Shown: positions 1-62,874 of the stretch, piece after piece
How the letters are laid out: every line of letters starts with the position of its first letter
Numbering within the stretch: the first letter of the stretch is position 1
Origin: a virus
Taxonomy: Duplodnaviria; Caudoviricetes
Direction: 5' to 3' (one strand)
DNA: 64,000 nucleotides
Virus record (IMG/VR): IMGVR_UViG_3300017788_000020
Location: 565 to 64,564 of that record
The notes under the pieces: model-generated
The model's input: the letters and a program-made list of their open reading frames with translations, nothing else
Databases searched by the model: none
Told to the model about the DNA's origin: nothing
Program-made: the position numbers and the translations under genes

Positions 1-692
1 ATGAACGGATAGTCGCCACTCCTGACTCTGTCCCAGAACTCTGGCAGATGCAAGCACGCAGTATCACACGTTGTCAACACGGGGCAACGACGAAGCATCG
101 CAATATGACGAGCCAAATGTGTTTTACCTGTTCCAGCCGGTCCAACCAAGAACAGGAGAGCTTCTTCGATGTCATCTCCTTGTACATAGTCGTCGATCCA
201 AGACAGATCCATCAAGCTGCCGTCTTTTTCACGGAAGAAATTTGGGTTGAACGTAGTGAAATCATCCTCGGTGAGCGTCACTCTGCTCGTTTGCAGACCG
301 GTACGCCCCACGGAAGCTATGGTTAGCTCTGTGTGCGGATTTTGGTCGTCGACAGGCAGCCTCAGCGCCGTATCCAGTTCGGTACGCACTTTCTGAAAGA
401 AGTACGGATCTTCTCTCCCGTGAAATACGGATACCCGGTTCACAATCAGACACACCGCTATCAAGCGGTTACTTGCGGCGTGGTGCCATATTTTTGTTAC
501 AGGCGAATGCTCTGCCTGCCAGTCAGCGCAAAAGCTTTCGAGTGTGTTTACGATAGCTTCTTCGGTTTTCTCGATGTAATCCCATGCCGTAAAGTACGGG
601 TAGCGCTCAGGATCGATTATGCCTACAATAAGGCTATCGCCTTGGTCTCTGTCTAACGCGCTAATAACGTATTTTGTCTGTCGTTCGCTCAT
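1..692 (-). CDS. AAA+/P-loop ATPase (3' end runs off the window; absent from the ORF track)
   Basis: Hand-translated open frame from ATG at 692 (MSERQTKYVISALD...) with Walker A LLFLVGPAGTGKTHLARHIA near 120-150; start overlaps the stop of the upstream gene. Confidence 0.8.
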   Translation of the reverse strand, partial: MSERQTKYVISALDRDQGDSLIVGIIDPERYPYFTAWDYIEKTEEAIVNTLESFCADWQAEHSPVTKIWHHAASNRLIAVCLIVNRVSVFHGREDPYFFQKVRTELDTALRLPVDDQNPHTELTIASVGRTGLQTSRVTLTEDDFTTFNPNFFREKDGSLMDLSWIDDYVQGDDIEEALLFLVGPAGTGKTHLARHIAMLRRCPVLTTCDTACLHLPEFWDRVRSGDYPF

Positions 693-45513: not shown

Positions 45514-45520
45514 TAAGACC

Positions 45521-45526: not shown

Positions 45527-45538
45527 TAATATAGAATT

Positions 45539-46042
45539 ATGTCTAACATTCTAGATAAGCTAGCTGCGGCGGCTGCGGCTGCGGCGCCGCCGTCAGGAGG
45601 TCAAGGAGGTCCTCCGCCTGGTCAAGGCGATCCTGCTATGGGTGATCCTAGCATGGCGCCTATGCCAGATCCGATCGAGCAAGACAATATGCGACTTACG
45701 TCGATACTGCAGAATCTACAGCTGCGCGCAGAGGTTGTACAAGCTCAGGCAGAGCTTGAAGAACTGACCAAGCAGATTCAGCAATCGAACGCTAAGCCTC
45801 CGATGGACCCGGATAGGCCGGCACCCCGTGCAGGCAGCATACCCGATCTGGCGCACGCATCTGGTCTAACAGAGCTTCTACGGCGCACACCCAAAGGTCG
45901 GTCGCAACAAGAAGTAGGCGCGGAAACTAAAGCACGTCCCAAGGCGATCGCGCGTGATACTCAGCGAGGTGTACCGACGACACCGGGCCGCGCAGACGCC
46001 GACGCGTTAAAAGCGGCGCCCATGCAATACCAAGGATCATAA
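45539..46042 (+). CDS. KxA-leader Pro/Gln-rich head/scaffold-like protein
   Basis: MSNILDKLAAAA; low complexity plus coiled coil. Confidence 0.55.
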   Translation: MSNILDKLAAAAAAAAPPSGGQGGPPPGQGDPAMGDPSMAPMPDPIEQDNMRLTSILQNLQLRAEVVQAQAELEELTKQIQQSNAKPPMDPDRPAPRAGSIPDLAHASGLTELLRRTPKGRSQQEVGAETKARPKAIARDTQRGVPTTPGRADADALKAAPMQYQGS

Positions 46043-46043
46043 C

Positions 46044-47096
46044 ATGACTGAACTTTTTAAGTTTGCCGGAGCTATTTTGGATTGTTATGACGATCCGGCA
46101 TTTATCGAGAACCCCCGCGCTACAGCGCTTTTCGGTCGCGAGCTGCTGCCCGCAGACAAGCTGGATACGTTACCAGACTCTTGTTTCGCGGTAAAGATCG
46201 CTGGCCGAACAGGTTACAAGAGGAGATTTCCTGTCTACAACGAGACGATAACCAAGGTTTCTTGTTTGTACTTTGATAACCACTACACGAGTCTGCCGCC
46301 AGAGATACAGGCGGCCGCTGGTCATGGTCTATACAAAGCGTGTGAGAAATTTGGTATAGAGAAGCGTGCGTCCATTGCGCAGCATGCGGCAGACGCGCCG
46401 TCGACCGTCGAGCGCGTTACTGTGCGTGTGGAAGAACCTGTAATCAAAACTGCAGCAGACCTCGCTAAACTGGCGGAAGACAGGCTGGCGTGGGAGCTAC
46501 ACCGTATGCCTATCGACCAGCGCACACAAGCGGCAACAGCGTTGTTTAAAGCCGCAGGCGAGGACGCGTTGACACGTCAAGACGTGTGGGATTATGTACA
46601 AAAACCTGTTACGGGACCGCTTCTAGAAGGCGCGCTAGACGATAGGGAGATGTTATGTAAGAATGCATCCTCGGAGATGCAACACCTGTTTGCCGAGCTG
46701 CGTAACGACATAGAGGAAGCTTCCGCAGATAAAGCCGTCGAGCTGCTGACACTGTTCGACAAACACGCAGGTTTCGACATGCGTTACACGCAAGGGCTGT
46801 TAGATCCGTCCAAGGCTGTTTATGGCGGCTGGTCTTTACCGCACGTACGTAGACGAAATCAAGAGTGGTTACTAGACAAAGAAGCCGGCGTGGTTGACGC
46901 GCACACGAACTTGCCTATTGATGCGGCGACCGCTAAAGGACTTAGCGTAGAGCAACATCTGTTACATCTACAACAGAGATACCCAAAGAACTCTGAGTCG
47001 TTCCGTAAAGCCGCGTCTGTCGGCGTTACTGGACATATGGAGCAGAAATGGGGCTCTAATTACGTAAAAGCACGTAAACTATACTTTGGAGTGTAA
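46044..47096 (+). CDS. head morphogenesis protein with multiple KxA sites
   Basis: KFA, KIA, KTAA, KNAS, KHAG, KEAG, KAAS; LPDSCFA...RRFP motif. Confidence 0.6.
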   Translation: MTELFKFAGAILDCYDDPAFIENPRATALFGRELLPADKLDTLPDSCFAVKIAGRTGYKRRFPVYNETITKVSCLYFDNHYTSLPPEIQAAAGHGLYKACEKFGIEKRASIAQHAADAPSTVERVTVRVEEPVIKTAADLAKLAEDRLAWELHRMPIDQRTQAATALFKAAGEDALTRQDVWDYVQKPVTGPLLEGALDDREMLCKNASSEMQHLFAELRNDIEEASADKAVELLTLFDKHAGFDMRYTQGLLDPSKAVYGGWSLPHVRRRNQEWLLDKEAGVVDAHTNLPIDAATAKGLSVEQHLLHLQQRYPKNSESFRKAASVGVTGHMEQKWGSNYVKARKLYFGV

Positions 47097-47102
47097 GCTT
47101 GC

Positions 47103-47708
47103 GTGCAACAAATTTTCACAGCGACAGGCGTGCCGCCTCGCGTGTACAGAGACCTGTTAACAAAAGAGTTCGGTGACGCGTGGTTAACCTGGCTACCTGA
47201 AACGCTTTATGCAGAAATAGAGCGTGTATGGCACGTGCAGCTATCAAGCGAGGTGGCCAATAAAATCAATGCTTTCCGTGTGTTTCTCACGACCGATCTG
47301 TTTTACACAGATGCCGCGGCGTTCGAGCACATTGTGCAGTCTATAAACGACGTTGTGATTGATCCAGAGTTGCTTAGCCTAAGCACACCTTCTGAGATTC
47401 TGTATGCGTTATATATGATAGGTCCTGTCGATGTGACCAAATTCGGGCGCGAGGTTGTGACGTATATACGGGTGTGCTGCGAGAATTTTGGCTTGTTGAA
47501 GTATCCCCCTTTACTTAAATTTGCGCAACCGGTATACGGTGCAGCAGAACTTAACGAAGCCTTACCTAAAATAAAACCTGCGCTGTTGCCCGGCGCCGAC
47601 GACGATATTGTTGTACAGCAGTCACGCAAGCTGTATCAAGTCATAGGGGATGTGGTGGATCGTATCGGGCGCTTCCGCAACGAAGTATTGGAGACAACTA
47701 ACGTATGA
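47103..47708 (+). CDS. conserved-looking head-associated protein
   Basis: FGDAWLTWLPETL; directly upstream of the portal. Confidence 0.55.
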   Translation: MQQIFTATGVPPRVYRDLLTKEFGDAWLTWLPETLYAEIERVWHVQLSSEVANKINAFRVFLTTDLFYTDAAAFEHIVQSINDVVIDPELLSLSTPSEILYALYMIGPVDVTKFGREVVTYIRVCCENFGLLKYPPLLKFAQPVYGAAELNEALPKIKPALLPGADDDIVVQQSRKLYQVIGDVVDRIGRFRNEVLETTNV

Positions 47709-49621
47709 TAGGGTCGAATAATCTGATTGGTGGTGGCGACGCCGTAGGCGGTATAGGCAGCTCCGGCGGTCCGCGGTCGCAAAACATGTATCCGCACCCG
47801 TTCTTTGATTTAAGTAATCAAGAGATACCCAGGACTGTTAAAGAGTTATTCAGGTGGTGCCTTTACCTGTATCTATCACACTCAGAGATTGCGCCCCTGA
47901 TCAACAAAAAGTGCTCCTATGTGATAACAGATATTCTGTACGACACCGAATCAAAAAAAGATCGCGATGCGTGGCAGAGTGTGTTGGAAGAAACGCTCGA
48001 TATCAAAGAATTTGAGCTTAAAATGTTGCTGGATTATGAGATTTTTGGCAATGCCTACTGCTCAATCTCTTTTCCGTTCGAGAGGCAACTGACGTGTAAG
48101 AAATGTTCGACTAACTTCTCAATTGAGGATCCTACGTTGGACTGGCACTACCGCGACCATACATTCGTAGGAAAATGCAACAAATGCGGTGAGCGGACAG
48201 AGTATGACGTACAAGACCGACCCATCAAGCGTAAAAAGTCTCTTAAACTTATACGATGGTTTCCTGAGTATATACAAGTAGTTCAGAACGAGATTACGGG
48301 TCACGCGCGCTATATTTACAAGATTCCTAGGTGGATGCGCAAAGGTATAGTTAACGCGGAAAACGACGAGAATAAATACCTTGTTGTGGACACACCGCTA
48401 GTGTTTTTACACGCCATCAAGCGCGGCGGCGACGTAGAGCTTGACAAAGACAACATATACCACATGCGTGTACCGAGCTGCTCGTATTACGATCAGGCAT
48501 ATGGTATACCGCCGATGTTGGCGGTATTCAAAGATGCTTGGTTATTCCAAGCGTATAGACGCGCACAAGAGGCGATCGCGATGGAACACGTATTGCCACT
48601 ACGTCTCCTGATCCCGCGACCTATATCTGGTGATCACTCGCCGCACCAGCACAACGATCTTGGCCAGTGGTCAAGCCGTATGCAGAACATCGTCAACAAG
48701 TGGCGCCGGGATCCGAACGCTATATTCACCGTACCATTCCCGGCCGAGGTTCAAAGTATCGGTGGGAATGCGCAGGCGCTCAACGTGCACAACGATATGG
48801 CACAGATTCGTCAACAAATCGCAGGCGGACTGGACATCCCTAGTGACATGATCTACGGCAATATGAGTTGGAGCGGCAGTAGCGTCACGTTGCGTATGTT
48901 AGAGAACACGTTCTTAGGCCGTATAACCCAGCTCGAAAAGCTGCTGAATAAGTTCATCATCCCTAGAGTAAAGGCCTGGGCAGCTTTGCCGGACATTACA
49001 ATCAGGCACAGAGACTTTAAGATGGCGGACGACGTTCAGCAGAAGCAAATCGCCATGACGCTTCGTCAGACAAATACGTTATCCGACCGCACGGTGATAC
49101 AAGAGCTCGGCTTTGACTACGCGACTGAGCAGAAATACAAGCGGGAAGAGGAGGAGACGCGTAACGCAACGCTTGCTCGACAGATGCTGGCGCAGACAGA
49201 CGCTCAAGGTAAGGCGCAGATTGCTATGGCGGCCTTTGAGGCGCAAGCACAGGCTGCACGTACTAAGGCCGCAGAAGAGGCGCAGCGCAAAGCAGCTCTG
49301 GAATCATACAAAGAGCTCGGAAGTCCGCAAGACCGGTCGAATATGGCGAACGTGGCCCAAGCTATCGGCTCGCCTATGCCAGAGCAGATTGGCGGCTCTC
49401 CTATATCATATAGCTCCGAGGTACTTGACAGCATGGCAGAGAATGTGCTAAAAGCGACGCCGCCGGATATGATTGCAGACATGACTATGCGCTTGCAAAA
49501 ATCAAACCCGCAAATTGCGGCAGCTATTGCGCGTATTCAGCGCCGCGGCGAAGAGGCGTCACGCACCGTACGCACGTTACCGGAGCAGAAGCCGCCGCGT
49601 AGTCCTAACGCAGGTATTTGA
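47705..49621 (+). CDS. portal protein with Zn-ribbon insertion
   Basis: LDYEIFGNAY, IYHMR...YGIPP, IAGGLDIP, coiled-coil tail; CKKC...CNKC insert. Confidence 0.7.
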   Translation: MIGSNNLIGGGDAVGGIGSSGGPRSQNMYPHPFFDLSNQEIPRTVKELFRWCLYLYLSHSEIAPLINKKCSYVITDILYDTESKKDRDAWQSVLEETLDIKEFELKMLLDYEIFGNAYCSISFPFERQLTCKKCSTNFSIEDPTLDWHYRDHTFVGKCNKCGERTEYDVQDRPIKRKKSLKLIRWFPEYIQVVQNEITGHARYIYKIPRWMRKGIVNAENDENKYLVVDTPLVFLHAIKRGGDVELDKDNIYHMRVPSCSYYDQAYGIPPMLAVFKDAWLFQAYRRAQEAIAMEHVLPLRLLIPRPISGDHSPHQHNDLGQWSSRMQNIVNKWRRDPNAIFTVPFPAEVQSIGGNAQALNVHNDMAQIRQQIAGGLDIPSDMIYGNMSWSGSSVTLRMLENTFLGRITQLEKLLNKFIIPRVKAWAALPDITIRHRDFKMADDVQQKQIAMTLRQTNTLSDRTVIQELGFDYATEQKYKREEEETRNATLARQMLAQTDAQGKAQIAMAAFEAQAQAARTKAAEEAQRKAALESYKELGSPQDRSNMANVAQAIGSPMPEQIGGSPISYSSEVLDSMAENVLKATPPDMIADMTMRLQKSNPQIAAAIARIQRRGEEASRTVRTLPEQKPPRSPNAGI

Positions 49622-49624
49622 GTC

Positions 49625-50002
49625 ATGGCAAACAACCGCATAACCAACGTCCTATCAAAGCAGGTGCTAGAGGGGATAAACTCCAGCATAGCTAGCCGAC
49701 CCGCGCTAGGCGCAGCAGCTGCGAAGTTCGTGGCGCGCGGTTTGGACGAACAGCTGCGCCGTAAACGCATCGTATTGCTTAACCTACATACGTCTCGTGA
49801 ATCAACCTTCTGGCAAATACTGCAAAACACTCCAGAACGTTTCCAGATCGTAAGCGAGAAAGAGTCTCACCAGCGAGGCGAATATGTAGTGCGTGTTATA
49901 TTTTACGAAATTGGCGAAGATTTGCCCATATATAAATCACAGGCTGCGCTTATCGCTGAATACACAGGTGCGCCACAAGAAACAGAGTTAGATGATGTCT
50001 AA
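49625..50002 (+). CDS. hypothetical protein
   Basis: Between portal and RNAP, overlapping the RNAP start. Confidence 0.6.
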   Translation: MANNRITNVLSKQVLEGINSSIASRPALGAAAAKFVARGLDEQLRRKRIVLLNLHTSRESTFWQILQNTPERFQIVSEKESHQRGEYVVRVIFYEIGEDLPIYKSQAALIAEYTGAPQETELDDV

Positions 50003-53000
50003 AGAGCTTCAACAACACATACAGTTGCTAGAAGAAGTTCGTCGTATTGTGGCGAACATGTTTCCGATAACTGCCCGCAACGGCGCCACGCTGACTGTAT
50101 CCAATCTTCGTTGGTCAGACGCAGGCCAGCATGTTATGGATAACATCACTGCCCAAAAGGAGGCTAAGTTGCGCGAGCGGTCCGTTGACAGTAAGCTGAC
50201 AGCGGATGTAGAACTAAAGGATGCGACAGGGACGATACTCGATAGCCGCAAAGGCTACTTCATACTGTCGATGCCGCACATCACGTCGCGTAATTCGTAT
50301 ATCGTTGACGGCAACGAAGTTCAGATAATCAATCAATTACGTCTTCGTCCAGGTGTTTACACGACCATAAAGGCCGGGGACACCGTGGAGGCGTATTTGA
50401 ACACGACCGCCGCCGGTACATACAAGTTACTGCTCGACAGGAAGACTGGTGTTATTCGCCTGAAGGTCGGTACAGATAAGAAAGTGCCTGTGTATTCTGT
50501 ATTACTTGCCCTGGGCGCATTACCGGGCGACTTACCAGACATATTCGGTGACCTGCTTGATGTGAATGAGAAAGCCGCGCGTATAGAGCCTGATACGCAA
50601 AAACTGTTGTTGGCTTTATGGCCTTACGCCAAAAATGGCTCTTTAATTGAGAACCAACTCGAGGCGCGTAAGTTCTTAGAATCTAAACCACTCGATCCGG
50701 CGGTCAACAAACTGACACTGGGTATTTCTGGTATTGACAAGATCGACAAGGCCGCGGTAGCCGCCGCCATACGCAGATGTATTTTTATATCGAAAGGTAT
50801 GGCAGACGAGGATGACATCGAGTCGCTCGCGTTCAAGTCGATTCACTCAATCGAGGATTTTATTCCAGAACGCCTGCGGCGCAAAGAAGCGGCAGTAAAG
50901 CGCATTGTCGCTTACCAGATGACACGCAAAGCGACTATACCGGCCGTACTACCATCGTCACTCTTTGATAACAATATCAAAGACTTTATGACAACATCTG
51001 AGTTTACCAGATTCTCAGACCAAAATAATCCGATTGATATGAACGCCGTCGCGTCAACCACCACGATCATGGGTGAGGGCGGTATACAAAGTACGCGTGC
51101 GGTCAGCGACGCCGTGCGCGCCGTACACGCCTCGCACTTCGGTGTGCTTGATCCGGTACATACCCCAGAAGGACCTAAGATCGGTATTACCGGACACCTT
51201 TCGCTGGGCGCGGAGAAAATTGGGAATACGCTTTTCCTCACAGTCTTTGATGCGCGCACAGGCGAGAAAAAGCGGATGTCCGTTGAAGCGCTTATGCCGT
51301 ATACGGTAGCTTTTGCTGACCAGTATACAAACATCGGTACCGGTACACCTAAGCTGAAGGATAAATACACGACAGTCAAGGCGCGTAAAAACACCAAACT
51401 GCTTGAGGTCAATCCTGCGGACGTGGATTACATATTCAACGATCCAGCAACCTTCTTCTCGTCGAGCACGTCCGTCATTCCGTTTGTTAACAGTAATAGC
51501 GCTAACCGCGTTCTGATGGGCGACAAACACATCGAACAGTCGGTGCAATTGGCTGATCCAGACAAGCCTTTGGTTTTACACAGACTGACTAAAGTCAACA
51601 AAGGCTATCTAGAGCTCTTAGGAGAGAACTTTCTTGTTAAAGCGCCTGTAGCCGGTACGGTGACGAAGATCACACCGGACACTGTTTTCATAAAAGAGGA
51701 CAAAGGTAAGACACACGCGGTAGCTATCCATAATAACTATCCGCTCAACTCTAAGACATTTTTGCACGATGAGCCTATTGTGACTGTAGGTGAGCAGGTC
51801 CGGGCCGGGCAAGCCTTGGTACGTAACAATTTCACCAAAGACAACACGCTCGCCCTCGGTAAAAACCTTCTCGTGGCTATGGTACCTTACAAAGGTTACA
51901 ACTTCGAGGACGGTACAGTCATCTCCTACAAAGCCGCACAAAAGCTCGCATCTGTGCACAAAAACGAGCACAGAGTGGAGAAAGAGGACGGCGTGGCTAT
52001 AGGGCTAGCGACGTACATTGCCCGATACCCACAAAATCTTGATAAGTTCCGCAAAGGCTTTAGAGATAACTACGACGAGAACGGTATTATAAAAAAAGGT
52101 ACGGTTGTTCACAAAGACGACATTCTTATACCTGCCGTAAAAGAAGTCACGCTAAGTAAAACTGAATTAGTTAATATACACAAAAAGCTGCTCTCGACCG
52201 CATATTCCGATATCTCGGAAACGTGGACAAAAGACGTTCCTGGCGAAGTTGTGGATGTCATCAATGAGCGGGGCTTTGTTAAAGTTGTTGTACGCAGCGT
52301 CGAGCCGGCCGTTGTAGGTGATAAGCTGTCCGCTTTTGCAGGAGCTAAAGGCATCATTACTAAGATTCTCGGACCTGACGAAGTCTATAAGGATGAGAAA
52401 GGTGCTGAGATTGATGTGTTGTTCAATTTCCTAGGTACCCTAGGTCGCGCCAATCCCGGCTTCATACTAGAAGCTGCTGCCGGTAAAGTCGCGCAAAAAA
52501 CAGGCAAGCCTTTCTATGTCGACAATTTCAACATGACGCACGAGAGCAATCTTGCGCATGTCCAAGAAGAACTCAAGAAGGCTGGAATAAGCGACGCCGA
52601 GACCATCACCAATCCGACAACCGGCCACAAGATGGAGAATGTGCTGGTCGGTCCGCTGCATACATTAAAGCTCAAGCACATGGTCGAGCATAAATTCTCG
52701 GCCCGCGGCGCAGTCGGTCTCCCGTATACGACGCTAGAGCAGCCTAAAAAAGAATCCGGCGAGAGTGCGCAACGTATTGCGCCCCTCGACATGTCGTCGC
52801 TGCTTTCTATGGGCGCTACAGCGTTTCTCAGCGACGCCTACGGCATCAAGTCGCAGAAAAACGATGATTACTGGTTAGCGCTACAGACTGGCCGCACGCT
52901 ACCTGCGCCGCAAACTCCTTACGTGGCAAATAAGTTTGTGACGATGATGCTTGGTGCAGGTATTAACCTAAACCAGACTGGCTCTAAACTAACCGCCACG

Positions 53001-56000
53001 CCTATGACTGATGAAGAGATTTTGCGTATCAGTCACGGGGAAATCAAAGAACCACACACGCTGAAATCGTCCTCTTTCCAACCCATGAAAGCGGGCTTGT
53101 TTGATGACGACTTGACGGGCGGTATAGGCGGTAATAAGTTCTCCCACATACGACTAGCAGAACCTATTATTAATCCGTTGATGGTGGAGGCCGTTGTGTC
53201 TGTGGGCGACTTTAACTCAGGTGTCGAGGTCGAACAGGTGCTCAACGGCACTAAATCAGTCACCGCAGACGGCCTAGTCGTCGACGGCGACGGCGGTGCG
53301 ACAGGTATCGAAGGTATCCGCACTGTCCTCAAAAAAGTGGATATAGCTAAGGCTATAGAAAAGACAGGTGACGCTGCCAAAAACGCCAAAGGCTCAGTAC
53401 TTAACAAACTTAACCGCCGCTTGCGTTACCTACGGGCACTCGAGTCGATGGGTATGCGACCAGAAAACGCGTACATAAATCAGCATGTTCCGGTTATTCC
53501 CCCGAAGTTCCGGCAGATCACGGAACGGACAGACGGGTCAGTATCTGTGGCGGACGTGAACCATCACTACAGAGATCTGTTAATCATCAACAATCAGCTA
53601 GAAGAGCTGAAGAATATCGGCGTAGACAAGAAACACACGGCTGCTCTATCTAGAGCATTGTATGACGGCGCTAGCGCGTTGGCTGGTTTAGGCGATTCCG
53701 TAACAAAAGGTAGAGAATACAAAGGCCTTTTGGAAGAGATAAACGGCGTTAAGGAATCTAAATACGGCTACTTCAAGAGTAAGCTACAGTCGCGTCCACA
53801 AGACCTGTCTGCGCGGTCGACTGTTATTCCAAACCCTAAATTGGATATGGACCACATTGGTATCCCTACCAATATGGCGCTCACCATCTACACACCTTTC
53901 GTCATAAAGCGCCTCGTACAAAACGGGTACGCGCCACTAGATGCACGCAAGATGGTAAGAGAGCAGTCTCACGAGGCAGTGAGAGCTTTGGAAGTAGAGA
54001 TGGAGGACCGGCCGGTACTTATGACCAGAGCGCCATCTCTACACAAATTCAACATGCTGAGCTTTAAGCCAACACTGATTAACGGCAAAGCGGTAGAGGT
54101 AAATCCCCTTATTGTAGGGGGCTATAACATGGACTTTAACGGCGATGCCGTCTGGCACTCATGCATATTTGCTCTAGAGGCTGAGAAAGCGGATGAATTC
54201 TATGATTTTGTGTTGACTAATAGCATGTTTAATGATAGATTGTGGACGAAAGAAGAATTGGCTTCTTTCTTACACAACACAAAAATGACAGCAAGATTTG
54301 ACGTGAAGCTTCCTTATATAGAAGGACACACAGTACACTGCATAGCGCTAGAAGATTTCCCGAGAGGGGAGCGTAGCCACTGTAGCATGGGTCAGTTTGG
54401 TATTATTGAGTGGTACCAAGCGCCGCCCGGTATTAAAGCTTTGGCGTACGATAACTTAAATCAAAAACTAGAGTGGCGACCTGTCACTTTCTACTCTGTT
54501 CACCACGGATGTGAGCGTGAGATCATTAACCTTGCATCAGGTCGTCAGATGTTCGCCGATGACGACCCTCGGGCGGTATTTGGTATTGAGAGAGGCACGT
54601 TAACCTTCACTAGAAACACTCCCTCTAATGCCGCTGAAAATCAGATGTTTGTTCCTCGTGTAGCTAATATGAACGTCACTAATTACGGAGATCAAACAGA
54701 GATACAAGTAGTGACCGATAAAACACGAAAAAATCCGTTACCTGAAACGCTTGCTTTAACAGCAGAACTAGGCTACTTAGTCGGTGTTATGGCCGGCGAC
54801 GGCTGGGTGTCTACTAATGACTCAATTAACATAGCAAGTATACGCCCAGCGATTCCTGCAAAATGTCAAGCAACTATAGAACAGTTGGCTGATAGAGTTG
54901 TCAAAGACACTGTCACAATATCTACTAAGTCCTTGGGAGAAAGTGTAAGACATACGTTTAGTGCTGCCGCTGTAGCAGATTTCTTAAAAGAGATGATCGG
55001 TTCTGGCGCTAAGAATAAGCACCTACCTGTGTGGTATTTGTCTGCCAACGAAGAATGCCGCAAAGGATTATTCGCCGGCTTGATGGACACTGATGGTTCT
55101 ATTTGCGTGGTGCAGGCTGTAGCTAAAGCGAAGCCTCAGCTACAGGCTAACTATACAAGCACAAGCTTCCGTTTAGCTCATGAAGTACTGCTGTTAGCTA
55201 AGAGTCTGGGTATTGACGGTCGTATCACACATTATAAGTCTTCTATGAAAGCGACCGATACGTGGGCAGCTTCTTTCTCCAATATGGACATCAAGCGTTG
55301 GGGCGGTAAGTACATGATGCATCCGGAGAAGCTTGAAAAACTCGCCTCTATAGAGGTAGATGAGACCTCGAACATTGCGGCACGGACTGACATAGTTCCC
55401 ATAAGCTTCGATTTAGCCAAGTATATTCAAAACAGCGTCAGTATGCCGAGGAACGCCCCGAAGGAGACGAAATCGTTGTATGTAACAATACAGAGGGCCG
55501 TCAAGCTCGGTAAACTTAGCCGCATGATAGCCAAGCGCGCAATATCTCTAATAACTGAAGAGACCTTACTTAAACATCCCGAAGGTGCGAAATGGTTACG
55601 TATTGTTGACGACACTTCAGTCAAATGGGACCAAGTCGCGTCTGTCGAGAAAACAGGCGTTTGCGAGACCGGATATGACCTGACAGTTCCGGGCTACGAA
55701 ACTTTCATGAACATAGAAGGGGTCATTCTTTCCAACACGGCAGGTATCCACGTACCGGTATCGGAAGAGGCTCGCCGTGAAGCGGTCGAGAAACTTATGC
55801 CGAGCCAGAACCTGATCTCTGTTCGTCACGAGTCCGCTATGCATACCCCCGGTAAAGAGACGGCACTCGGCATCTATTTGATGACAAATCCCAAAGGGGA
55901 GCCTACGGTTGTGCGCTCGCTGGACGATGCGGTCGCACAGCATGCACGGGGTAGTCTTAAAGTCAATGCGGCGATCCGTGTTGGCGATAAAGTGACGTGC

Positions 56001-58853
56001 GTAGGACAGAAACTGGTTGCAGACGTGTTCCCGGTATCTATGCGACCAGAGCTCATGGTCGTGGACGGCGACCTGCTTAACCAGTTGTGCTTGAAAGCCG
56101 CACGCACGTTACCTGCACGAGCCGCGGGCGAGATTATTAGCAGGCTGAAAGATCTTGGGAACCACTACGTCACAGAGATAGGCGCAGGCGTATCCTTGAA
56201 GGACCTGGAGTTCGACTACGAGAAACGGGATGCTGTACTGGATAAGTTACGCAAACGTGCCCCCATCGTAGGGTTCGACACCGCCGTGGAAGAGGCCGGT
56301 AGAGAGTTAGATGCGCTACTAGCGGCTGCGACTGATAACAGGTTTGTGGAAGCAGGCGTCACAAGTAAGGCCACAAGTAAGGGCGGTATGGTACGGCAGA
56401 TGATTGTCACACCCCTCGCTATTACGGACTCTAAAGGCGCGACAATTCCGCTTGTTGTCAATAAGTCGTACGCTGAGGGACAAGACCTGGGGTCGTACTT
56501 AGGGACCACGCCAGGCGCGCGACAAGGCCTTGTTGATAAAGGTATCTCTGTTGCTGATACTGGGTACTTAAGTAAGCTCCTAGTCAATGCTAACGCGACC
56601 AATAAGATCACAGTGGACGATTGCGGTACCGTAGACGGATTACTGTTGGATGTCGACGACAAGGAAGCACTTAATCGGTTCGGCGCTAAAGAACCTATAC
56701 GCAATGTAGTTATAACACCAGAAGTGGTTCGCAAACTTAAAGCCGCGGGCGAAAAACAAATACTTGCGCGATCGCCTCTTAAGTGTCGAGCACTCAGTGG
56801 TATGTGCGCAAAATGCGCCGGTGTGAACGAATATGGTGCGGCGTATAAGATTGGCGACAATGTCGGTATCACGGCCGCACAGGCTATTGGCGAACGTGCT
56901 ACGCAAGTAACACTTCAAAAGTTCCACTGCCTTGAGCGTACTACCATCTGCCTTGTGCGAAAAGGTGCTGAAATTTTCCACACAACACTTGGGCAACTAT
57001 TTGATGAGCATGAGACTCATCAAGAAGGTGATGAAGAGGTCGCCGAGGTTAGCGCCTATGAAGTGTGGGACCGCGGCGGCTGGACAAAAGTAAAGCGAGT
57101 ACTGCGTCACGCACAAGAGCCCGGAACAGAGATGGCCTTGATTAGATCTCGTACAGGACAGGCGGTTATTGCGCAGGATAACCACCCGCACATGTTATCA
57201 AAGGTCGCTGTTGCTTGTCCTACCTGCGCCACATGGCCTAAACGTATAAACGCGCGAGGTAGTCGTTACTACTGTCGTACATGTAAACACGGCTGGTCAG
57301 ATAAACCGGAAATGACTGTTGACTACAGCATGACGGCTAGTAGCGAGCTTGGTGACAAGACGCACGCGGCTTTGATTGACACGGGTCCGGTACCTACGCC
57401 GGCCACACCAATCATCCCCGATGGTTGGTTGGCTGGTATGTATATCGCCGAAGGCTCTCGCCTAGTCAGGGGCGGTTTGTACGAAGGCTTCTGTGTGTGT
57501 CAAAATGATGGTCCGATTAAAAGTCAGGTGTATGCGCGGCTAACTGACTGGCTACCTGACAGCAAAATCCAGCTATCTAAAACCGCTGTGCGTGTGTTGG
57601 AACCCGCGTTAGGTGAAAAGCTTACAAAGGTGCACGGTACCTATTGTCGAGATAAAGGGCTGCCTCCAGGTTGGAGCGGCTACCCATCCGTATGGTTGAG
57701 TCAGTTTGTAGCCGGTGTTATTGACGGCGATGGCACGCTTGTACGTAACCGTGACAGTCGCTGGACTACAGTACGCATAGACACCACTAGTTTCTTGTTA
57801 GCACAACAGCTTGTTCATATATTACGAACAGCCGACATCAAGGCGCGTGTTATAGTGTCGCCTTGGCGAAAACTAAGCTCGCATCAAGGATACGCGGTAC
57901 AGTTTGTGTATACAGAAAGAGCGCAGCAATTCTTAGGAAATGCCTGTACAAAATTAGTGGGTGTGGCTGCGAATCCTAAGAACAAAAAAGAAGATTATGG
58001 TCATGTCGTTGACTACGTAAAAATTGTACGCTATAGCGAGGCGCCTGCCGTATACGATATCGAAACAGAGACTGGAACCTACTTTGCTAATAGTTTCTGG
58101 ACACACAATACGGGGGGTGCTGTCGGCGGCAACGTCGTAGGTTTTGGACGTATTAAGCAACTGCTACATCTACCGCAGACAATGTCCGATAAGGCGGTTC
58201 TATCAGAGGAGACAGGTGTTGTACAAGCTATCGCACCGTCGCCGACGGGTGGCTGGCTTGTCACAGTTAATGGTGTCCGCCATTTCGTTGCACAGGAGTT
58301 AGGTCTAAAAATTAAGCAAGGCGACTCCGTTGTCGCGGGGCAGCAGATCAGTCTACGCGGCGTAGTGCAGCCTCATGAATTACTGGAGACGACCGGCGAC
58401 ATCGGGCTTGTACAGAATAAGATCGTCGACGATCTAAAGGGCGCGTACGGTAAGCAGAGAATTCACAGACGTATCTTTGAGACCGTAGTCAAGCCTATGA
58501 CAGACAAAGCCAGGGTTATTCACCCAGGCGACGCTGATAAGTTGTTTAACGTCTACGCTGGTGATACCTTACTCAGCAGCGTCATAGACGACTACAACAA
58601 GAAGCTTACGGCGAAAGGTCTGCGCCCCATTAAATCGGAAACAGCTTTGATGGGTATTGTGGCGATTCCGTTCCAGGACGAGGACTTTGTTGGTAGGTTG
58701 ACACACGAGCGTCTGAAAGACACGCTCAAGGGCGCGCCTGCGCTAAACCAGACGGTTGATATACAAGGCGACCACCCCGTGTCGCGGCTAGTCCTAAAGA
58801 ACTTTGGGCACGTAGACGACATAAAGAACGCGCCAAGAAGAAAATTATTCTAA
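49992..58853 (+). CDS. rpoBC: single-chain fused beta-beta' DNA-directed RNA polymerase with two inteins (~2029 aa if both splice)
   Basis: beta: HFGVLDPVHTPEG.KIG, GYNFEDG, GDKLS..GAKG, KLKHMVEHKFSAR; beta': HIRLAEP, VPVIPPKFR, RAPSLH, YNMDFNGD, TGYLSKLL, CGT..RSPLKC..CAKC, AQAIGERATQVTLQKFH/TGG. Confidence 0.95.
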   Translation: MMSKELQQHIQLLEEVRRIVANMFPITARNGATLTVSNLRWSDAGQHVMDNITAQKEAKLRERSVDSKLTADVELKDATGTILDSRKGYFILSMPHITSRNSYIVDGNEVQIINQLRLRPGVYTTIKAGDTVEAYLNTTAAGTYKLLLDRKTGVIRLKVGTDKKVPVYSVLLALGALPGDLPDIFGDLLDVNEKAARIEPDTQKLLLALWPYAKNGSLIENQLEARKFLESKPLDPAVNKLTLGISGIDKIDKAAVAAAIRRCIFISKGMADEDDIESLAFKSIHSIEDFIPERLRRKEAAVKRIVAYQMTRKATIPAVLPSSLFDNNIKDFMTTSEFTRFSDQNNPIDMNAVASTTTIMGEGGIQSTRAVSDAVRAVHASHFGVLDPVHTPEGPKIGITGHLSLGAEKIGNTLFLTVFDARTGEKKRMSVEALMPYTVAFADQYTNIGTGTPKLKDKYTTVKARKNTKLLEVNPADVDYIFNDPATFFSSSTSVIPFVNSNSANRVLMGDKHIEQSVQLADPDKPLVLHRLTKVNKGYLELLGENFLVKAPVAGTVTKITPDTVFIKEDKGKTHAVAIHNNYPLNSKTFLHDEPIVTVGEQVRAGQALVRNNFTKDNTLALGKNLLVAMVPYKGYNFEDGTVISYKAAQKLASVHKNEHRVEKEDGVAIGLATYIARYPQNLDKFRKGFRDNYDENGIIKKGTVVHKDDILIPAVKEVTLSKTELVNIHKKLLSTAYSDISETWTKDVPGEVVDVINERGFVKVVVRSVEPAVVGDKLSAFAGAKGIITKILGPDEVYKDEKGAEIDVLFNFLGTLGRANPGFILEAAAGKVAQKTGKPFYVDNFNMTHESNLAHVQEELKKAGISDAETITNPTTGHKMENVLVGPLHTLKLKHMVEHKFSARGAVGLPYTTLEQPKKESGESAQRIAPLDMSSLLSMGATAFLSDAYGIKSQKNDDYWLALQTGRTLPAPQTPYVANKFVTMMLGAGINLNQTGSKLTATPMTDEEILRISHGEIKEPHTLKSSSFQPMKAGLFDDDLTGGIGGNKFSHIRLAEPIINPLMVEAVVSVGDFNSGVEVEQVLNGTKSVTADGLVVDGDGGATGIEGIRTVLKKVDIAKAIEKTGDAAKNAKGSVLNKLNRRLRYLRALESMGMRPENAYINQHVPVIPPKFRQITERTDGSVSVADVNHHYRDLLIINNQLEELKNIGVDKKHTAALSRALYDGASALAGLGDSVTKGREYKGLLEEINGVKESKYGYFKSKLQSRPQDLSARSTVIPNPKLDMDHIGIPTNMALTIYTPFVIKRLVQNGYAPLDARKMVREQSHEAVRALEVEMEDRPVLMTRAPSLHKFNMLSFKPTLINGKAVEVNPLIVGGYNMDFNGDAVWHSCIFALEAEKADEFYDFVLTNSMFNDRLWTKEELASFLHNTKMTARFDVKLPYIEGHTVHCIALEDFPRGERSHCSMGQFGIIEWYQAPPGIKALAYDNLNQKLEWRPVTFYSVHHGCEREIINLASGRQMFADDDPRAVFGIERGTLTFTRNTPSNAAENQMFVPRVANMNVTNYGDQTEIQVVTDKTRKNPLPETLALTAELGYLVGVMAGDGWVSTNDSINIASIRPAIPAKCQATIEQLADRVVKDTVTISTKSLGESVRHTFSAAAVADFLKEMIGSGAKNKHLPVWYLSANEECRKGLFAGLMDTDGSICVVQAVAKAKPQLQANYTSTSFRLAHEVLLLAKSLGIDGRITHYKSSMKATDTWAASFSNMDIKRWGGKYMMHPEKLEKLASIEVDETSNIAARTDIVPISFDLAKYIQNSVSMPRNAPKETKSLYVTIQRAVKLGKLSRMIAKRAISLITEETLLKHPEGAKWLRIVDDTSVKWDQVASVEKTGVCETGYDLTVPGYETFMNIEGVILSNTAGIHVPVSEEARREAVEKLMPSQNLISVRHESAMHTPGKETALGIYLMTNPKGEPTVVRSLDDAVAQHARGSLKVNAAIRVGDKVTCVGQKLVADVFPVSMRPELMVVDGDLLNQLCLKAARTLPARAAGEIISRLKDLGNHYVTEIGAGVSLKDLEFDYEKRDAVLDKLRKRAPIVGFDTAVEEAGRELDALLAAATDNRFVEAGVTSKATSKGGMVRQMIVTPLAITDSKGATIPLVVNKSYAEGQDLGSYLGTTPGARQGLVDKGISVADTGYLSKLLVNANATNKITVDDCGTVDGLLLDVDDKEALNRFGAKEPIRNVVITPEVVRKLKAAGEKQILARSPLKCRALSGMCAKCAGVNEYGAAYKIGDNVGITAAQAIGERATQVTLQKFHCLERTTICLVRKGAEIFHTTLGQLFDEHETHQEGDEEVAEVSAYEVWDRGGWTKVKRVLRHAQEPGTEMALIRSRTGQAVIAQDNHPHMLSKVAVACPTCATWPKRINARGSRYYCRTCKHGWSDKPEMTVDYSMTASSELGDKTHAALIDTGPVPTPATPIIPDGWLAGMYIAEGSRLVRGGLYEGFCVCQNDGPIKSQVYARLTDWLPDSKIQLSKTAVRVLEPALGEKLTKVHGTYCRDKGLPPGWSGYPSVWLSQFVAGVIDGDGTLVRNRDSRWTTVRIDTTSFLLAQQLVHILRTADIKARVIVSPWRKLSSHQGYAVQFVYTERAQQFLGNACTKLVGVAANPKNKKEDYGHVVDYVKIVRYSEAPAVYDIETETGTYFANSFWTHNTGGAVGGNVVGFGRIKQLLHLPQTMSDKAVLSEETGVVQAIAPSPTGGWLVTVNGVRHFVAQELGLKIKQGDSVVAGQQISLRGVVQPHELLETTGDIGLVQNKIVDDLKGAYGKQRIHRRIFETVVKPMTDKARVIHPGDADKLFNVYAGDTLLSSVIDDYNKKLTAKGLRPIKSETALMGIVAIPFQDEDFVGRLTHERLKDTLKGAPALNQTVDIQGDHPVSRLVLKNFGHVDDIKNAPRRKLF
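54147..55736 (+). mobile_element. atypical intein 1 (530 aa) with LAGLIDADG homing endonuclease
   Basis: Interrupts DFNGD|TAGIHVP (equivalent to DFDGD-QMAVHVP); LVGVMAGDG and FAGLMDTDG motifs; block F/G KWDQVASVE..GYDLTVPGYETFMNIEGVILSN; first residue Ala. Confidence 0.85.
56928..58109 (+). mobile_element. canonical intein 2 (394 aa) with Zn ribbon and LAGLIDADG endonuclease
   Basis: KFH|CLERTT...QDNHPH...LAGMYIAEG...VAGVIDGDG...VYDIETETGTYFANSFWTHN|TGG. Confidence 0.92.
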
Positions 58854-58885
58854 AAACAAAGCCGCACGCGCGGCTTTGTTTTTTT
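58852..58885. terminator. bidirectional intrinsic terminator
   Basis: aaaaacaaagccgc-acgc-gcggctttgttttt. Confidence 0.85.
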
Positions 58886-58895
58886 GTAATACGCA

Positions 58896-59348
58896 TCATA
58901 TTGCGTCATCGCCGCGCGCACCAGAAGACCTATGATGCGCATTTGTTGGTTTTTTTACATTGTTGGCGAGCACGTTGCGGTACTTTCTTGACCTGTAATA
59001 GAGCGTAGTAAGCTCTTTCGTGAGCTTGTAGATGAGCGCTCTACGCAGGTATAACTCCACAGTTGGCGCACTCTCGTCATCCAAAACCCGCCAAAGCTGG
59101 GTCAGCAACGACGGTCGCTGTTCTACCGGCGCTGTGCGCCAATTTTTGGCGATATCGAGAGCCGGCGGTGGGACAACTAGCTTATCGGTTAAATATATCG
59201 GAGCGGCGAGGCGCTTCTGTGCCTCCTCGAGAGGCTCAGCTGCGTTTAGGTATGCGACTATACGGTCCGCGCTCAATGTCACATAGGGGAACAGCTCTGT
59301 ACTTATGGTACGGTCGATACCATCGGCGTCAAGTTGGTCGTTTGTCAT
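58896..59348 (-). CDS. hypothetical protein
   Basis: ORF at end of - operon; start uncertain (59348 or 59426). Confidence 0.5.
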   Translation of the reverse strand: MTNDQLDADGIDRTISTELFPYVTLSADRIVAYLNAAEPLEEAQKRLAAPIYLTDKLVVPPPALDIAKNWRTAPVEQRPSLLTQLWRVLDDESAPTVELYLRRALIYKLTKELTTLYYRSRKYRNVLANNVKKPTNAHHRSSGARGDDAI

Positions 59349-59655
59349 AGGGTGGCTGATTGTGCTTGCGCGCGCATTCTTCTGGGGTAGTTTGGCGCTT
59401 TTCCCAGTCGTTGTATGCTGTTTCATATACTTTGCACACGCGAGGCTCGCCTGCGGCTTCTGCTAGCAAATCGATCAAAAAGAACTCATCATCCAGGGTA
59501 CATCGTTCGAGCATTGAGCGCTGCGCGTACCTTGCGTCAGCCTCTTCCACCGTAGCATGGTAGCTCAACAGAGTCTCCCCTTGGTACTCTGTAGAAAATA
59601 CGGACACGAGTTTATATCGACACGGAAGAGTTTTAGTTGCTTGTGTCATGATCAA
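59329..59655 (-). CDS. hypothetical protein
   Basis: Overlapping operon gene. Confidence 0.55.
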   Translation of the reverse strand: MIMTQATKTLPCRYKLVSVFSTEYQGETLLSYHATVEEADARYAQRSMLERCTLDDEFFLIDLLAEAAGEPRVCKVYETAYNDWEKRQTTPEECARKHNQPPYDKRPT

Positions 59656-60103
59656 CTGATTCGTGTTGGTTGAAATCTAAAGCGCACAGCATGTCGTAGA
59701 TACGGTAGTATTCTTTCAAGAACTTGCGTAAATGACGCGCATGTTTTTTGTCCAAACGGCCACGCCTATCAACAAGAATGAAGAAATCTCCTTCGTATGT
59801 GACATCATGCGCCCCCCACCTGTTCGGCAGGAGATACCCAGCAGCACCTGCATAGGTGTCCCCCATCGTATGACCAAATGTTCCTGCCCTAAGCTCAGGC
59901 AGTTTCGTCAGCTCGTTGATCGCATCATAGCCTCCGTAGTTGACTTCTTCAAATGCGAAAAAAATCCGCGTTTGTTTTTCGCCAATGCGGGTCGGTACAG
60001 CTTCCGCGGCGTTACCAAAGAGCGCCTCTACGCGATCAATAATGTCATCCGAGTCTGTGCTGTCAAACAATACTCGCATGGCGAGATAGCAGCGATCACC
60101 CAT
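59633..60103 (-). CDS. hypothetical protein
   Basis: MGDRCY...FEEVNYGG; coupled to neighbours. Confidence 0.6.
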   Translation of the reverse strand: MGDRCYLAMRVLFDSTDSDDIIDRVEALFGNAAEAVPTRIGEKQTRIFFAFEEVNYGGYDAINELTKLPELRAGTFGHTMGDTYAGAAGYLLPNRWGAHDVTYEGDFFILVDRRGRLDKKHARHLRKFLKEYYRIYDMLCALDFNQHESVDHDTSN

Positions 60104-60395
60104 TTTTCTTCATCTCCTCTAACCGCGCAACTAGATTCCGCATGCGCAGCACGCCGACAGGATTAGCGCTGTGGATATATATCTTAGGTAGTGGAAACGC
60201 CGCATTGTCGAAAATGCGACGTTCGAGCCATGTCAGTACATCATAGCCCGTGCCGCGACCGTCGTCGCCCAAATCGTGGTCGAGGCTGAGTTCTGTGATT
60301 CCGCCCCTTTCGAGCAGGGCGATGGTCTCTTCAGGCCAGTATGTGCGGATCCAGCCTTCGGGCGTGGAGCGCGTATCGTCCAGATAAACCTTCAT
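60096..60395 (-). CDS. cyclic-phosphate-processing receiver domain protein
   Basis: KVYLDDTR.TPEGW, LSLDHDLG, TGYDVL, IHSANPVG. Confidence 0.8.
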   Translation of the reverse strand: MKVYLDDTRSTPEGWIRTYWPEETIALLERGGITELSLDHDLGDDGRGTGYDVLTWLERRIFDNAAFPLPKIYIHSANPVGVLRMRNLVARLEEMKKNG

Positions 60396-60598
60396 CGGGC
60401 TTTGTAGATAGCTCTGTGTGTTGCTATTACAGGTGTGTCCTCGAAAGACTCGGGTAACGTAGCGTCACCAAGATGGTCTTTATTGTAAATCAAGCGAATG
60501 TGTCGACCGTTCTTTGGATCTAGCACTACGCTGCTAGATACAAACCACGGCTGTTTCGCGTACTTGCTGCGAAATCTTTTGATTATATCGATAGCCAC
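60392..60598 (-). CDS. small hypothetical protein
   Basis: GAAGG RBS, ATGA overlap. Confidence 0.55.
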   Translation of the reverse strand: MAIDIIKRFRSKYAKQPWFVSSSVVLDPKNGRHIRLIYNKDHLGDATLPESFEDTPVIATHRAIYKAR

Positions 60599-61998: not shown

Positions 61999-62010
61999 TA
62001 TACTTATGAC
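61999..62010 (-). promoter_or_regulatory. putative phage early promoter GTCATAAGTATA
   Basis: 11/12 match to the recurring motif. Confidence 0.65.
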
Positions 62011-62342: not shown

Positions 62343-62383
62343 AAAAAAGAAAGACCGCTTTCGCGCGGCCTTTCTTTTTTTTT
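62343..62383. terminator. intrinsic terminator
   Basis: A-tract, imperfect GC stem, T-tract after the HTH gene. Confidence 0.65.
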
Positions 62384-62874
62384 CACTCCTTCATGAAGGC
62401 CTGCAGGGCCGGAAGGCCCACCTGCAGACCTTTGGCGATCTCGTTCAAAGAGAGACCGCGTTGGAGGAGATCGCAGATCTCCAGGCGTCCCACGTTGAGG
62501 AGGACCGCCCTCGATGCGTTTCTGCGAGCCCCGTACCTGCGTACACCGCGTGTACGCAAGTACAGGCTCAACGCGGACTCGGAGACGCCGATGTCTTCGG
62601 CGATCTCCTTGTTTTGGAAGCCCTCACTAATGAGGGCTTTGATGGCATCGATACCATAGGCGTCGATACGCGCCGTCGTCGTCGGCGTGACGGCGGCGCG
62701 TGAAGGCTTCTGTTTTGTAGAAGCCTTCCCCACGCTCTTCCTATAGAAGAGCGTGTCGATCCATTTCTGGATCTCTTCGGGCCGCACCCCGAATTGTTTT
62801 GCGGCCCGCTCCAGCGAAAGTTCGCCGGTCTTAACGCGCAGAACTATTGCGCGTTTTTGGGTAAGCGTCATCAT
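62383..62874 (-). CDS. multi-HTH DNA-binding protein
   Basis: Three HTH-like units: SLERAAKQFGV, QNKEIAEDIGVSESAL, SLNEIAKGLQV; AAGGGG RBS. Confidence 0.75.
   Translation of the reverse strand: MMTLTQKRAIVLRVKTGELSLERAAKQFGVRPEEIQKWIDTLFYRKSVGKASTKQKPSRAAVTPTTTARIDAYGIDAIKALISEGFQNKEIAEDIGVSESALSLYLRTRGVRRYGARRNASRAVLLNVGRLEICDLLQRGLSLNEIAKGLQVGLPALQAFMKE

Follow-up and report, generated by a model that had tools for sequence, protein, structure and literature searches.

A stretch of 64,000 nucleotides (nt) of viral DNA, hereafter called the window in its full length, was taken from an IMG/VR virus record of 64.5 kb (IMGVR_UViG_3300017788_000020) with an estimated completeness of 33%. It was found to encode a bacterial-type RNA polymerase (RNAP) in which beta and beta' are made as one chain of 2029 amino acids (aa) after loss of two homing-endonuclease inteins. 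The phage behind the window is an uncultured freshwater tailed phage with a genome of about 190 kb. On balance we favour the explanation that this chain, once its inteins are removed, is the sole RNAP of the phage, is packaged for early transcription and is also used later in infection. The polymerase gene is a single open reading frame (ORF) with the following parts.

49992-58853, plus strand: whole precursor ORF, 2953 aa from an ATG start; beta, beta' N part, intein 1, beta' middle, intein 2 and beta' C part
49992-52997, plus strand: beta module, residues 1 to about 1002, with Rpb2_3 and Rpb2_6; solved beta chains align over 54-1040
52317-52352, plus strand: beta active-site motif GDKLSAFAGAKG, residues 776-787; both Lys retained, Arg-His changed to Phe-Ala
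52998-54146, plus strand: beta' N-terminal module, residues 1003-1385, ending at the catalytic loop; fused straight to beta, Zn-binding domain absent
53094-53156, plus strand: short Gly-rich loop replacing the beta' N-terminal Zn finger, residues 1035-1055, GLFDDDLTGGIGGNKFSHIRL; alignment gap, no Cys
54126-54146, plus strand: NMDFNGD (residues 1379-1385), the catalytic motif; Asn (AAC at 54138-54140) replaces the middle Asp of the Mg-binding triad
54147-55736, plus strand: intein 1, residues 1386-1915, 530 aa; predicted HINT fold and LAGLIDADG; Ala1, block B A-D-D-D-P-R, end Ser-Asn followed by Thr
55737-56927, plus strand: beta' middle module, residues 1916-2312; bridge-helix region, four-Cys cluster and start of the trigger loop
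56928-58109, plus strand: intein 2, residues 2313-2706, 394 aa; within the trigger loop between ...KFH and TGG...
58110-58853, plus strand: beta' C-terminal module and stop codon, residues 2707-2953

The order of beta and beta' within the ORF was determined by domain searches and by comparison with solved structures. Pfam placed Rpb2_3 at residues 341-407 and Rpb2_6 at 553-917 (E 4.7e-51) in the beta part, and Rpb1_1 at 1122-1215, Rpb1_2 at 1336-1386 and Rpb1_5 at 2169-2847 in the beta' part, together with LAGLIDADG and intein-splicing domains inside the same ORF. As many as 194 distinct solved chains matched the ORF at E<=0.001, the best being bacterial beta' (1.4e-72) and beta (9.9e-70). The boundaries of the two inserts were set by alignment with fused relatives free of inserts at both sites, giving residues 1386-1915 (530 aa) for insert 1 and 2313-2706 (394 aa) for insert 2. 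The spliced length is thus 2953 - 530 - 394 = 2029 aa, and an intein-free homologue (P0152, locus L004) likewise has 2029 aa. A first-pass annotation made from the letters of the window had described one ORF with beta followed by beta' motifs and about 2029 aa after intein removal; the domain order and the matches to solved chains agree with the former, and the alignment-defined boundaries make the latter figure exact. The bridge helix, the trigger loop and the C-terminal beta' domains are all present, as judged from Rpb1_5 and from alignment with the relatives and with Gp216 of Salmonella phage Arash. The 8.9-kb reading frame is open throughout. No match to the polymerase ORF was detected by megablast against 50,697 phage records.

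The beta' N-terminal Zn-binding domain is missing from this chain. Residues 17-55 of mycobacterial beta' align with ORF residues 1003/1005-1043 (up to ...GLF), and the alignment picks up again at beta' residue 256, corresponding to ORF residue 1102. The 58 residues separating the two aligned segments hold no Cys, indicating that the domain, which carries four Cys, is absent. The same short loop stands in place of the Zn finger in all five fused relatives, and the Zn finger is absent from Arash too. In the beta active-site motif, the second Lys was present in 196 of 198 family members, and the Arg-His dyad varied widely (RH 83, RY 23, RA 19, RF 13 and FA 10 among the 198). The FA group includes SAFAGAKG of the window, and seven of its ten carriers are alleles in which the catalytic triad is intact and the catalytic site is insert-free. 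Both features had been noted at first sight, the missing domain as a deletion and the beta motif as a form of GDKxxGRHGNKG that had drifted; the deletion stands, and GDKLSAFAGAKG is indeed found at 776-787, but what was called drift falls within the normal variation of the 198 members. From these alignments, the loss of the Zn finger and the altered beta motif are traits of the whole clade and not signs of decay.

A search of IMG/VR gave eight loci. The polymerases of L004, L005, L007/L009 and L011 are fused and share about 50% identity with that of the window; L010 encodes a split form. When a protein search was seeded with the intein-free homologue, at least 407 proteins were obtained at E<=1e-10 (7998 best candidates scored). 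Most of them are 2000-2080 aa long, as expected for fused forms of about 2030 aa, and lie on contigs of about 170-215 kb; one family member carries the source label K13797. Among the proteins that could be placed, 113 of the homologue-seeded set were fully fused. For the set seeded with insert 1, 28 were fully fused and 49 stopped 84-102 aa past the catalytic site, the latter being the split form. Annotations of Arash and of Vibrio phage D69 show this split form, and it was also seen in D148 and D181; one protein of 1464-1546 aa comprises beta and the beta' N part, and a second of about 600 aa comprises the beta' C part. The beta-to-beta' junction is common to fused and split forms. The fused chain thus represents one of two architectures that are common in the family.

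Among cellular enzymes, the rpoBC fusions of Helicobacter and Wolbachia also carry beta and then beta' in one polypeptide, in the same order. Unlike the window polymerase, these are full-size enzymes with Zn finger, alpha and omega.

Closer counterparts are found among phages. Arash (Gp206 and Gp216) and Vibrio phages D69, D148 and D181 have genomes of similar size (181-188 kb) and share with the window lineage the order portal, small ORF and polymerase, the fusion of beta to the beta' N part, the lack of a Zn finger and the presence of sigma genes. They differ in that the beta' C half has a gene of its own (606-609 aa) located 0.6-6.7 kb downstream, and the identity to the window polymerase is 29-31%. 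Arash Gp206 itself is intein-free, has the catalytic motif DYDGD and follows a small ORF unlike that of the window. Phage-encoded beta and beta' of bacterial type were reported in 2020 for RNAP-encoding Caudovirales, in which 97 sequences and a clade named mReC were described (PMC7481178). As in the window lineage, these come from uncultured tailed-phage contigs (IMG/VR, metagenomes), and their beta and beta' align with bacterial COG0085 and COG0086 and branch apart from cellular enzymes (PMC7481178). The window, too, is a phage contig on which both beta and beta' match cellular models, as the mReC clade was delimited. In the accessible text of that paper, however, two subunits are described, fusion is mentioned for crAssphage only, and inteins, sigma factors or virions do not appear (PMC7481178). 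The same text states that mReC capsid proteins match Pfam Gp23 (PMC7481178); the Gp23 capsid family PF07068 gave no match in five records of the present family, but every control genome was silent as well.

The virion RNAPs of phiKZ and AR9 are likewise phage-encoded two-barrel enzymes related to cellular beta and beta', one packaged set of which transcribes early genes (PMC7824862, PMC13282480). In the accessible parts of these sources they consist of four or five very divergent polypeptides, have no sigma70-type factor and occur as two paralogous sets (PMC7824862, PMC13282480). In contrast, the enzyme of the window family is one chain from one gene, matches solved bacterial structures at E values down to 1.4e-72, and is accompanied in relatives by sigma70-type ORFs; the initial description of a fused, bacterial-looking enzyme unlike those of phiKZ and AR9 was therefore correct. 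That description had also left room for the family being already characterised in another role. The family has indeed been treated in print, as bacterial-like beta and beta' of phages were described in 2020 (PMC7481178) and Arash proteomics in 2023 (PMC10585845). In the literature searched, with most subscription journals outside its coverage, no account was found of the single-chain enzyme or of inteins such as those at its catalytic site.

We then looked at the number of RNAP genes and at accessory subunits in relatives. A single Rpb2_6 match was detected in each of the records G000, G001, G002 and G004, of which G001 (193,018 bp, with terminal repeats) is 100% complete. Of five records with 94-100% completeness and an insert of the window's type, each contained one RNAP ORF. 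As there is only one RNAP gene in the complete relatives, the enzyme cannot be restricted to an early, packaged role, and the later genes must be transcribed by freshly synthesized copies of it. ORFs with Sigma70_r2 (E<=0.01) were present in three of five records and then in four of five further records; in all, sigma70 matches were detected in seven of the nine relatives' records searched, six of them exceeding the family cut-off. Alpha (PF01193) and omega (PF01192) gave no match at E<=1 in four records, one of them complete, under conditions in which controls matched in 14 of 14 genomes; PF01000 and PF03118 lay outside this search. From the complete relatives we infer that the polymerase would use phage sigma70-type factors and need neither alpha nor omega. 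As a separate observation, a small ORF of the window at 62383-62874 (minus strand) gave several helix-turn-helix matches, one of them a sub-threshold match to sigma70 region 4.

Intein 1 interrupts the catalytic loop itself. Using phmmer, the 530-aa insert was compared with 1.84 billion representative sequences, giving 855 proteins at E<=0.001, of which 251 reached E<=1e-30. Family statistics were based on 111 sequences (at least 111 clusters) with the same block-B signature. An AlphaFold2 model of residues 1334-1963, built from a 27-sequence alignment (predicted local distance difference test score 77.6, predicted template modelling score 0.76), matched endonuclease-bearing inteins and mini-inteins with Z scores of 20.3-14.8. 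The match spans model residues 52/53 (D1385/A1386) to 582 (N1915), that is, the insert's own ends. The TliVMA intein aligned over 344 residues (Z 20.3, root mean square deviation 5.8), and for mini-inteins one alignment of 156 residues (Z 18.5, root mean square deviation 2.0) pairs model 50..583 with chain -2..165 and another (Z 17.7) pairs model 53..582 with chain 1..172. Endonucleases of I-DmoI type aligned with model residues 253-455. According to this model, intein 1 is a HINT-fold intein with a LAGLIDADG endonuclease.

The splicing residues of intein 1 are unusual, and several of them are invariant within its family. All 111 sequences have Asp at -1, a final Asn, Thr+1, Asp in place of His at B:10 within a family block B of T-D-D-D-P-R, and Asp at position 4 of block F (Asp1896 in the window); His1504 is also invariant, and the penultimate residue (G:6) is Ser in 103 of the 111. 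Residue 1 varies, being Gln in 40, Ala in 15, Glu in 14, Asp in 14, Leu in 10, Gly in 5, Cys in 3 and Asn in 2 of the 111 sequences. The endonuclease Asp residues are largely retained (D1603 in 100 and D1701 in 104 of 111). The window copy differs from the consensus at 90% or more of these sequences at only three positions, one of which is the extein Asn. Class 1 inteins begin with Cys, Ser or Thr and carry Thr-x-x-His in block B, where intein 1 has Ala1 and A-D-D-D. Class 2 is defined, in the accessible part of the source, by the absence of a position-1 nucleophile together with Ser at G:6, Cys+1, Thr at B:7 and His at B:10, and Class 3 is marked by Cys at block F position 4 (PMC4031507), where intein 1 has Asp1896. 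With Class 2, represented by Mja KlbA orthologues, intein 1 shares the lack of Cys or Ser at position 1, Ser for the penultimate His, Asp at F:4 and the final Asn (PMC4031507). It differs in that its family has Thr+1 and Asp at B:10 (both 111 of 111) and a LAGLIDADG domain, and sits in a polymerase and not in KlbA. Judged by its residues, intein 1 thus matches none of splicing classes 1-3, as these are defined in the accessible text (PMC4031507).

We consider it probable that intein 1 excises itself nonetheless. Under the more tentative reading of insert 1 as a new mechanistic class, given below, possible routes would be a direct attack by Thr+1 or the use of the invariant catalytic Asp at -1. 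The alternative that insert 1 is not spliced at all, and that either the C-terminal Asn-Thr bond alone is cut or a phage protease trims the insert to leave a two-piece beta', would agree with the invariant final Asn and Thr+1 (111 of 111), with the N-terminal junction devoid of a nucleophile and with the tolerance of a split beta' in this lineage. The natural split, however, falls 84-102 aa past the catalytic loop and not at the loop, a 530-aa domain left on the Mg-binding loop should block the active centre, and the predicted fold puts both junctions at normal intein positions. We regard this alternative as the least probable of those considered here, and keep self-excision as the preferred fate of intein 1.

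Other starting points and origins were examined for intein 1. Neither Cys1391 nor Cys1450 is acceptable as its first residue, as neither is conserved in the family and the fold alignment begins at 1385/1386. Duplication of a C-extein strand and helix in the first 45 or so aa was also rejected, the mean local score being 17.8 against 17.4 for shuffled sequences and 19.0 for another stretch of the insert (111 proteins). Two observations were made on sequencing contigs in this region. At 55190-55249, within the endonuclease part, runs X1 and X2 show a twofold rise in contig depth along some 55 nt, and past 55249 the contigs diverge from the window; the doubled depth and the divergent contigs indicate a short stretch shared with another locus, lying outside 49000-59000. 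In run X3, a low-depth contig of 151 nt matches 54083-54146 with one letter different and departs from the window exactly at the N-boundary of intein 1. Read in frame, its remaining letters resemble the beginning of a different insert from this family, suggesting differing insert alleles in very close relatives.

Intein 2 has the residues of a canonical Class 1 intein. It starts with CLERTT... (Cys1), has ...DNHPH... in the block-B region and ends with ...WTHN followed by T; LAGLIDADG_3 (E 7.4e-13) and Hom_end (E 1.2e-6) were detected within it. It is absent from all five aligned relatives. Between its splicing and endonuclease parts, a CxxC...CxxC pattern at 57216-57284 (residues 2409-2431) resembles a small zinc ribbon. 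Inteins are found elsewhere in relatives, in beta of L005 (HTPEG|C...) and of L007/L009 (GDKL|C...SGN|S). The polymerase of this phage lineage is a hot spot for inteins, with at least four conserved active-site motifs hit, up to three or more inteins per protein and proteins of up to 3719 aa in the insert-seeded set. At the DFDGD|T site alone, at least four further insert types were recognized (P0182, P0187, P0209, P0210, P0222, P0211, P0217, P0230, P0234, P0126, P0198 and P0223). Some of these other inserts end with Tyr-Asp, Trp-Asp or Gln-Asp and not with Asn, and all five of the inserts ending with Tyr-Asp have Asn at -1, as if Asp and Asn had been exchanged across the splice site.

The Mg-binding triad Asp-x-Asp-x-Asp, which in bacterial-type beta' stands in the motif NADFDGD, is encoded in the window as Asp-Asn-Asp. 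The triad was then compared among 249 placed proteins, of which 103 are without an insert at the catalytic site, 141 have one and five were unplaced on the C-terminal side.

No catalytic-site insert, 103 proteins: D-D-D 103, D-N-D 0, D-D-N 0, N-D-D 0
Catalytic-site insert present, 141 proteins: D-D-D 124, D-N-D 11, D-D-N 5, N-D-D 1

Changes were thus observed in 17 of 141 proteins with an insert and in 0 of 103 without, in a sample biased by the insert-seeded set, which was chosen for carrying the insert; the substitute was always Asn. The five unplaced proteins were all D-D-D. Among 51 IMG/VR loci, the motif was readable in 31, all with the full Asp triad, and the other 20 gave no clean motif. 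On a quick extein tree (FastTree, 227 rows, motif columns left out), the Asp/Asn state changes at least 13 times. Of 27 independent pairs differing in insert state, Asn went with the insert in six and against it in none, and 21 were equal (sign test p 0.031). The nearest relative of the window, P0210, has 91% extein identity, the motif DFDGN and a different intein at the same site (Cys1...Tyr-Asp). P0182, with DFDGN and an insert, lies at a distance of 0.04 from P0173, with DFDGD and no insert.

It might be argued from these data that the window allele is dead or dying, that is, that selfish inteins have entered the active site and one of them has lost its splicing residues, that Asn reflects relaxed selection, and that the genome is defective or dependent on complementation. 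The motif DFNGD in place of DFDGD, the complete absence of triad changes from the 103 insert-free alleles, and an intein 1 lacking the position-1 nucleophile and both Thr and His of block B would be in line with this. The polymerase frame is nevertheless open over 8.9 kb, and two sequencing runs belonging to different studies yielded contigs with an identical sequence at the Asn site, though both may be the source of the window. The uniform change to Asn in all 17 cases and the repeated changes of state along the tree speak against decay. In addition, the insert family keeps its invariant residues over 111 clusters and the window copy matches them, the insert-bearing gene is the only RNAP gene in all five near-complete genomes, and the FA beta motif occurs also in alleles with intact triad and no insert. 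A dying allele is therefore improbable in our judgement, though slightly less so than a failure of splicing. Under our explanation of a functional enzyme, the Asn of the triad is either tolerated or converted back to Asp after translation. The active site might be finished, for example, by Asn-Gly deamidation, perhaps during the wait in the capsid. As a tentative extension, to which we give rather less credence than to the functional enzyme itself, insert 1 might represent a large undescribed mechanistic class on phage RNAP catalytic loops, without position-1 nucleophile or block-B His and coupled to an encoded Asp-to-Asn change, the active site being either finished after translation or built with Asn as a ligand.

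As to the stage at which the polymerase acts, the best information comes from Arash. Virions of this phage were purified by sucrose gradient and pelleting, and 116 proteins were detected by mass spectrometry (PMC10585845). According to the accessible part of that report, the polymerase homologue Gp206 gave the most spectra (3516), with 128 unique peptides and 100% coverage, followed in this comparison by the major capsid protein with 1333, Gp216 (the beta' C half) with 1210, the portal with 877 and the sigma factor Gp10 with 467; a second sigma factor, Gp196, is absent from the virion protein table (PMC10585845). Virion packaging of the window polymerase can be proposed by analogy only. By this analogy, it is somewhat more probable than otherwise that the polymerase is loaded into the capsid, injected and starts early transcription. 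A competing view is that the polymerase is used only in the infected cell, for middle and late genes, while the host RNAP, maybe redirected by a phage sigma, reads the early genes, and that the Arash virion signal is carry-over. The Arash authors themselves allow for carry-over, as ribonucleotide reductases, ligases and helicases were in the preparation (PMC10585845), and phage sigma70-type factors could in principle bind the host core. Promoter-like sites of sigma-70 consensus also occur in the region, though at chance level (17 found against 16.2 expected in 45000-60500). Unselective carry-over is disfavoured, however, by spectra of Gp206 exceeding those of the major capsid protein at full coverage and by the detection of Gp10 and not of Gp196, and the polymerase gene adjoins the portal gene across distant relatives. 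A purely intracellular role is thus unlikely in our view, although it is the strongest of the competing explanations. The original proposal of a late-made, virion-packaged RNAP for early transcription is accordingly plausible in its packaging and lateness, given the Arash spectra and the position in the structural block, but not in making the enzyme exclusively packaged and early, as it is the sole RNAP in complete relatives.

The genomic neighbourhood of the polymerase gene bears on its time of expression. The gene is the last of an unbroken plus-strand block beginning at 39758, and the following ORF (58896-59426) is convergent; with the portal ORF adjoining, the polymerase does stand at the end of the portal-containing block, as had been noticed at the outset. 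Three features of this block and of the DNA just upstream of it are listed.

47705-49621, plus strand: gene for the portal protein (638 aa), 26% identical to gp204, the portal of Arash (E 6e-72); PHROG portal families match weakly (E 3.6e-4 and 5.3e-4)
49625-50002, plus strand: conserved small ORF, 125 aa, overlapping the polymerase start by 11 nt
39712-39722, plus strand: promoter-like 11-mer ATACTTATGAC, 36 nt upstream of the first ORF in the block that ends with the polymerase

The order of portal and then polymerase is retained in Arash, D69 and L005. In L004, L005/L006 and L007-L009, the ORF directly upstream of the polymerase is a homologue of the small ORF (39-41% identity), including cases in which the portal is 6 kb distant, and five more homologues were found in the protein collection. 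The small ORF showed no similarity to Arash gp205, Pfam matches were sub-cut-off only, and a PDB profile search gave a best E of 0.046; fold searches (best Z 5.4, best Foldseek E 0.02) stayed at noise level. Its product could be an accessory subunit or an assembly factor.

Four exact copies of ATACTTATGAC are present in the window (7005-7015, 12395-12405, 39712-39722 and 62000-62010), all on the plus strand and all intergenic, with intergenic DNA making up about 5% of the window. Allowing one mismatch or less, five matches were found against 1.19 expected, and one of 100 shuffles reached five. At 7005, 12395 and 39712, the copy precedes the first ORF of a plus-strand block by 36-56 nt, and a TAGT-like element lies about 30 nt farther upstream of these three. 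The other two blocks begin at 7060, with a tail-fibre-like gene, and at 12461. These features make ATACTTATGAC a candidate phage promoter. Late synthesis of the polymerase would fit both its position in the structural block and the shared 11-mer, and cotranscription with the portal-containing block is probable. A terminator scan of 45000-60500 gave 23 against 15.5 expected, which was taken as chance level, and 49000-59000 contained no repeats, direct or inverted, of at least 20 nt. Elsewhere in the window, an ORF at 22250-23293 (plus strand) has a Zn-metallopeptidase-like match (PF04298, E 2.4e-7), and a tRNA-Val gene with anticodon TAC lies at 63725-63800 (minus strand).

Several points weigh against a functional, packaged, single-chain polymerase. 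An Asn in the Mg-binding triad is expected to cripple catalysis. The canonical catalytic residues left in intein 1 are only the block-F Asp, the final Asn and Thr+1, and its self-excision is argued from the enzyme being the only polymerase, that is, from necessity and not from chemistry. No sigma gene was found in the window, a 33%-complete fragment, nor in G003, a 32%-complete one, and the complete relative G005 gave no Sigma70_r2 match. The evidence for packaging comes from a relative at 31% identity (Gp206) with a split gene, and from a preparation of 116 proteins that included metabolic enzymes. The 11-mer was not found in any of 66 relatives' loci, and the sequencing runs listed for the window sequence include no RNA run.

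If the enzyme works as proposed, it would be the smallest known sigma-dependent bacterial-type RNAP, one chain of 2029 aa without Zn finger, alpha or omega. It would then be attractive for structural and synthetic-biology work, and for learning which parts of bacterial RNAP are dispensable. Most interesting as leads are the chemistry of intein 1, unexplained but testable, and the coupling of Asp-to-Asn changes to the insert, likewise unexplained, which mass spectrometry could clarify at low cost; the family of catalytic-loop inserts, with at least 111 clusters, offers a direct test of a possible fourth mechanism of protein splicing. For the biology of these phages, the strategy of an injected polymerase would extend from phiKZ-like and N4-like phages to a widespread aquatic clade with genomes of about 190 kb and with cultured relatives.

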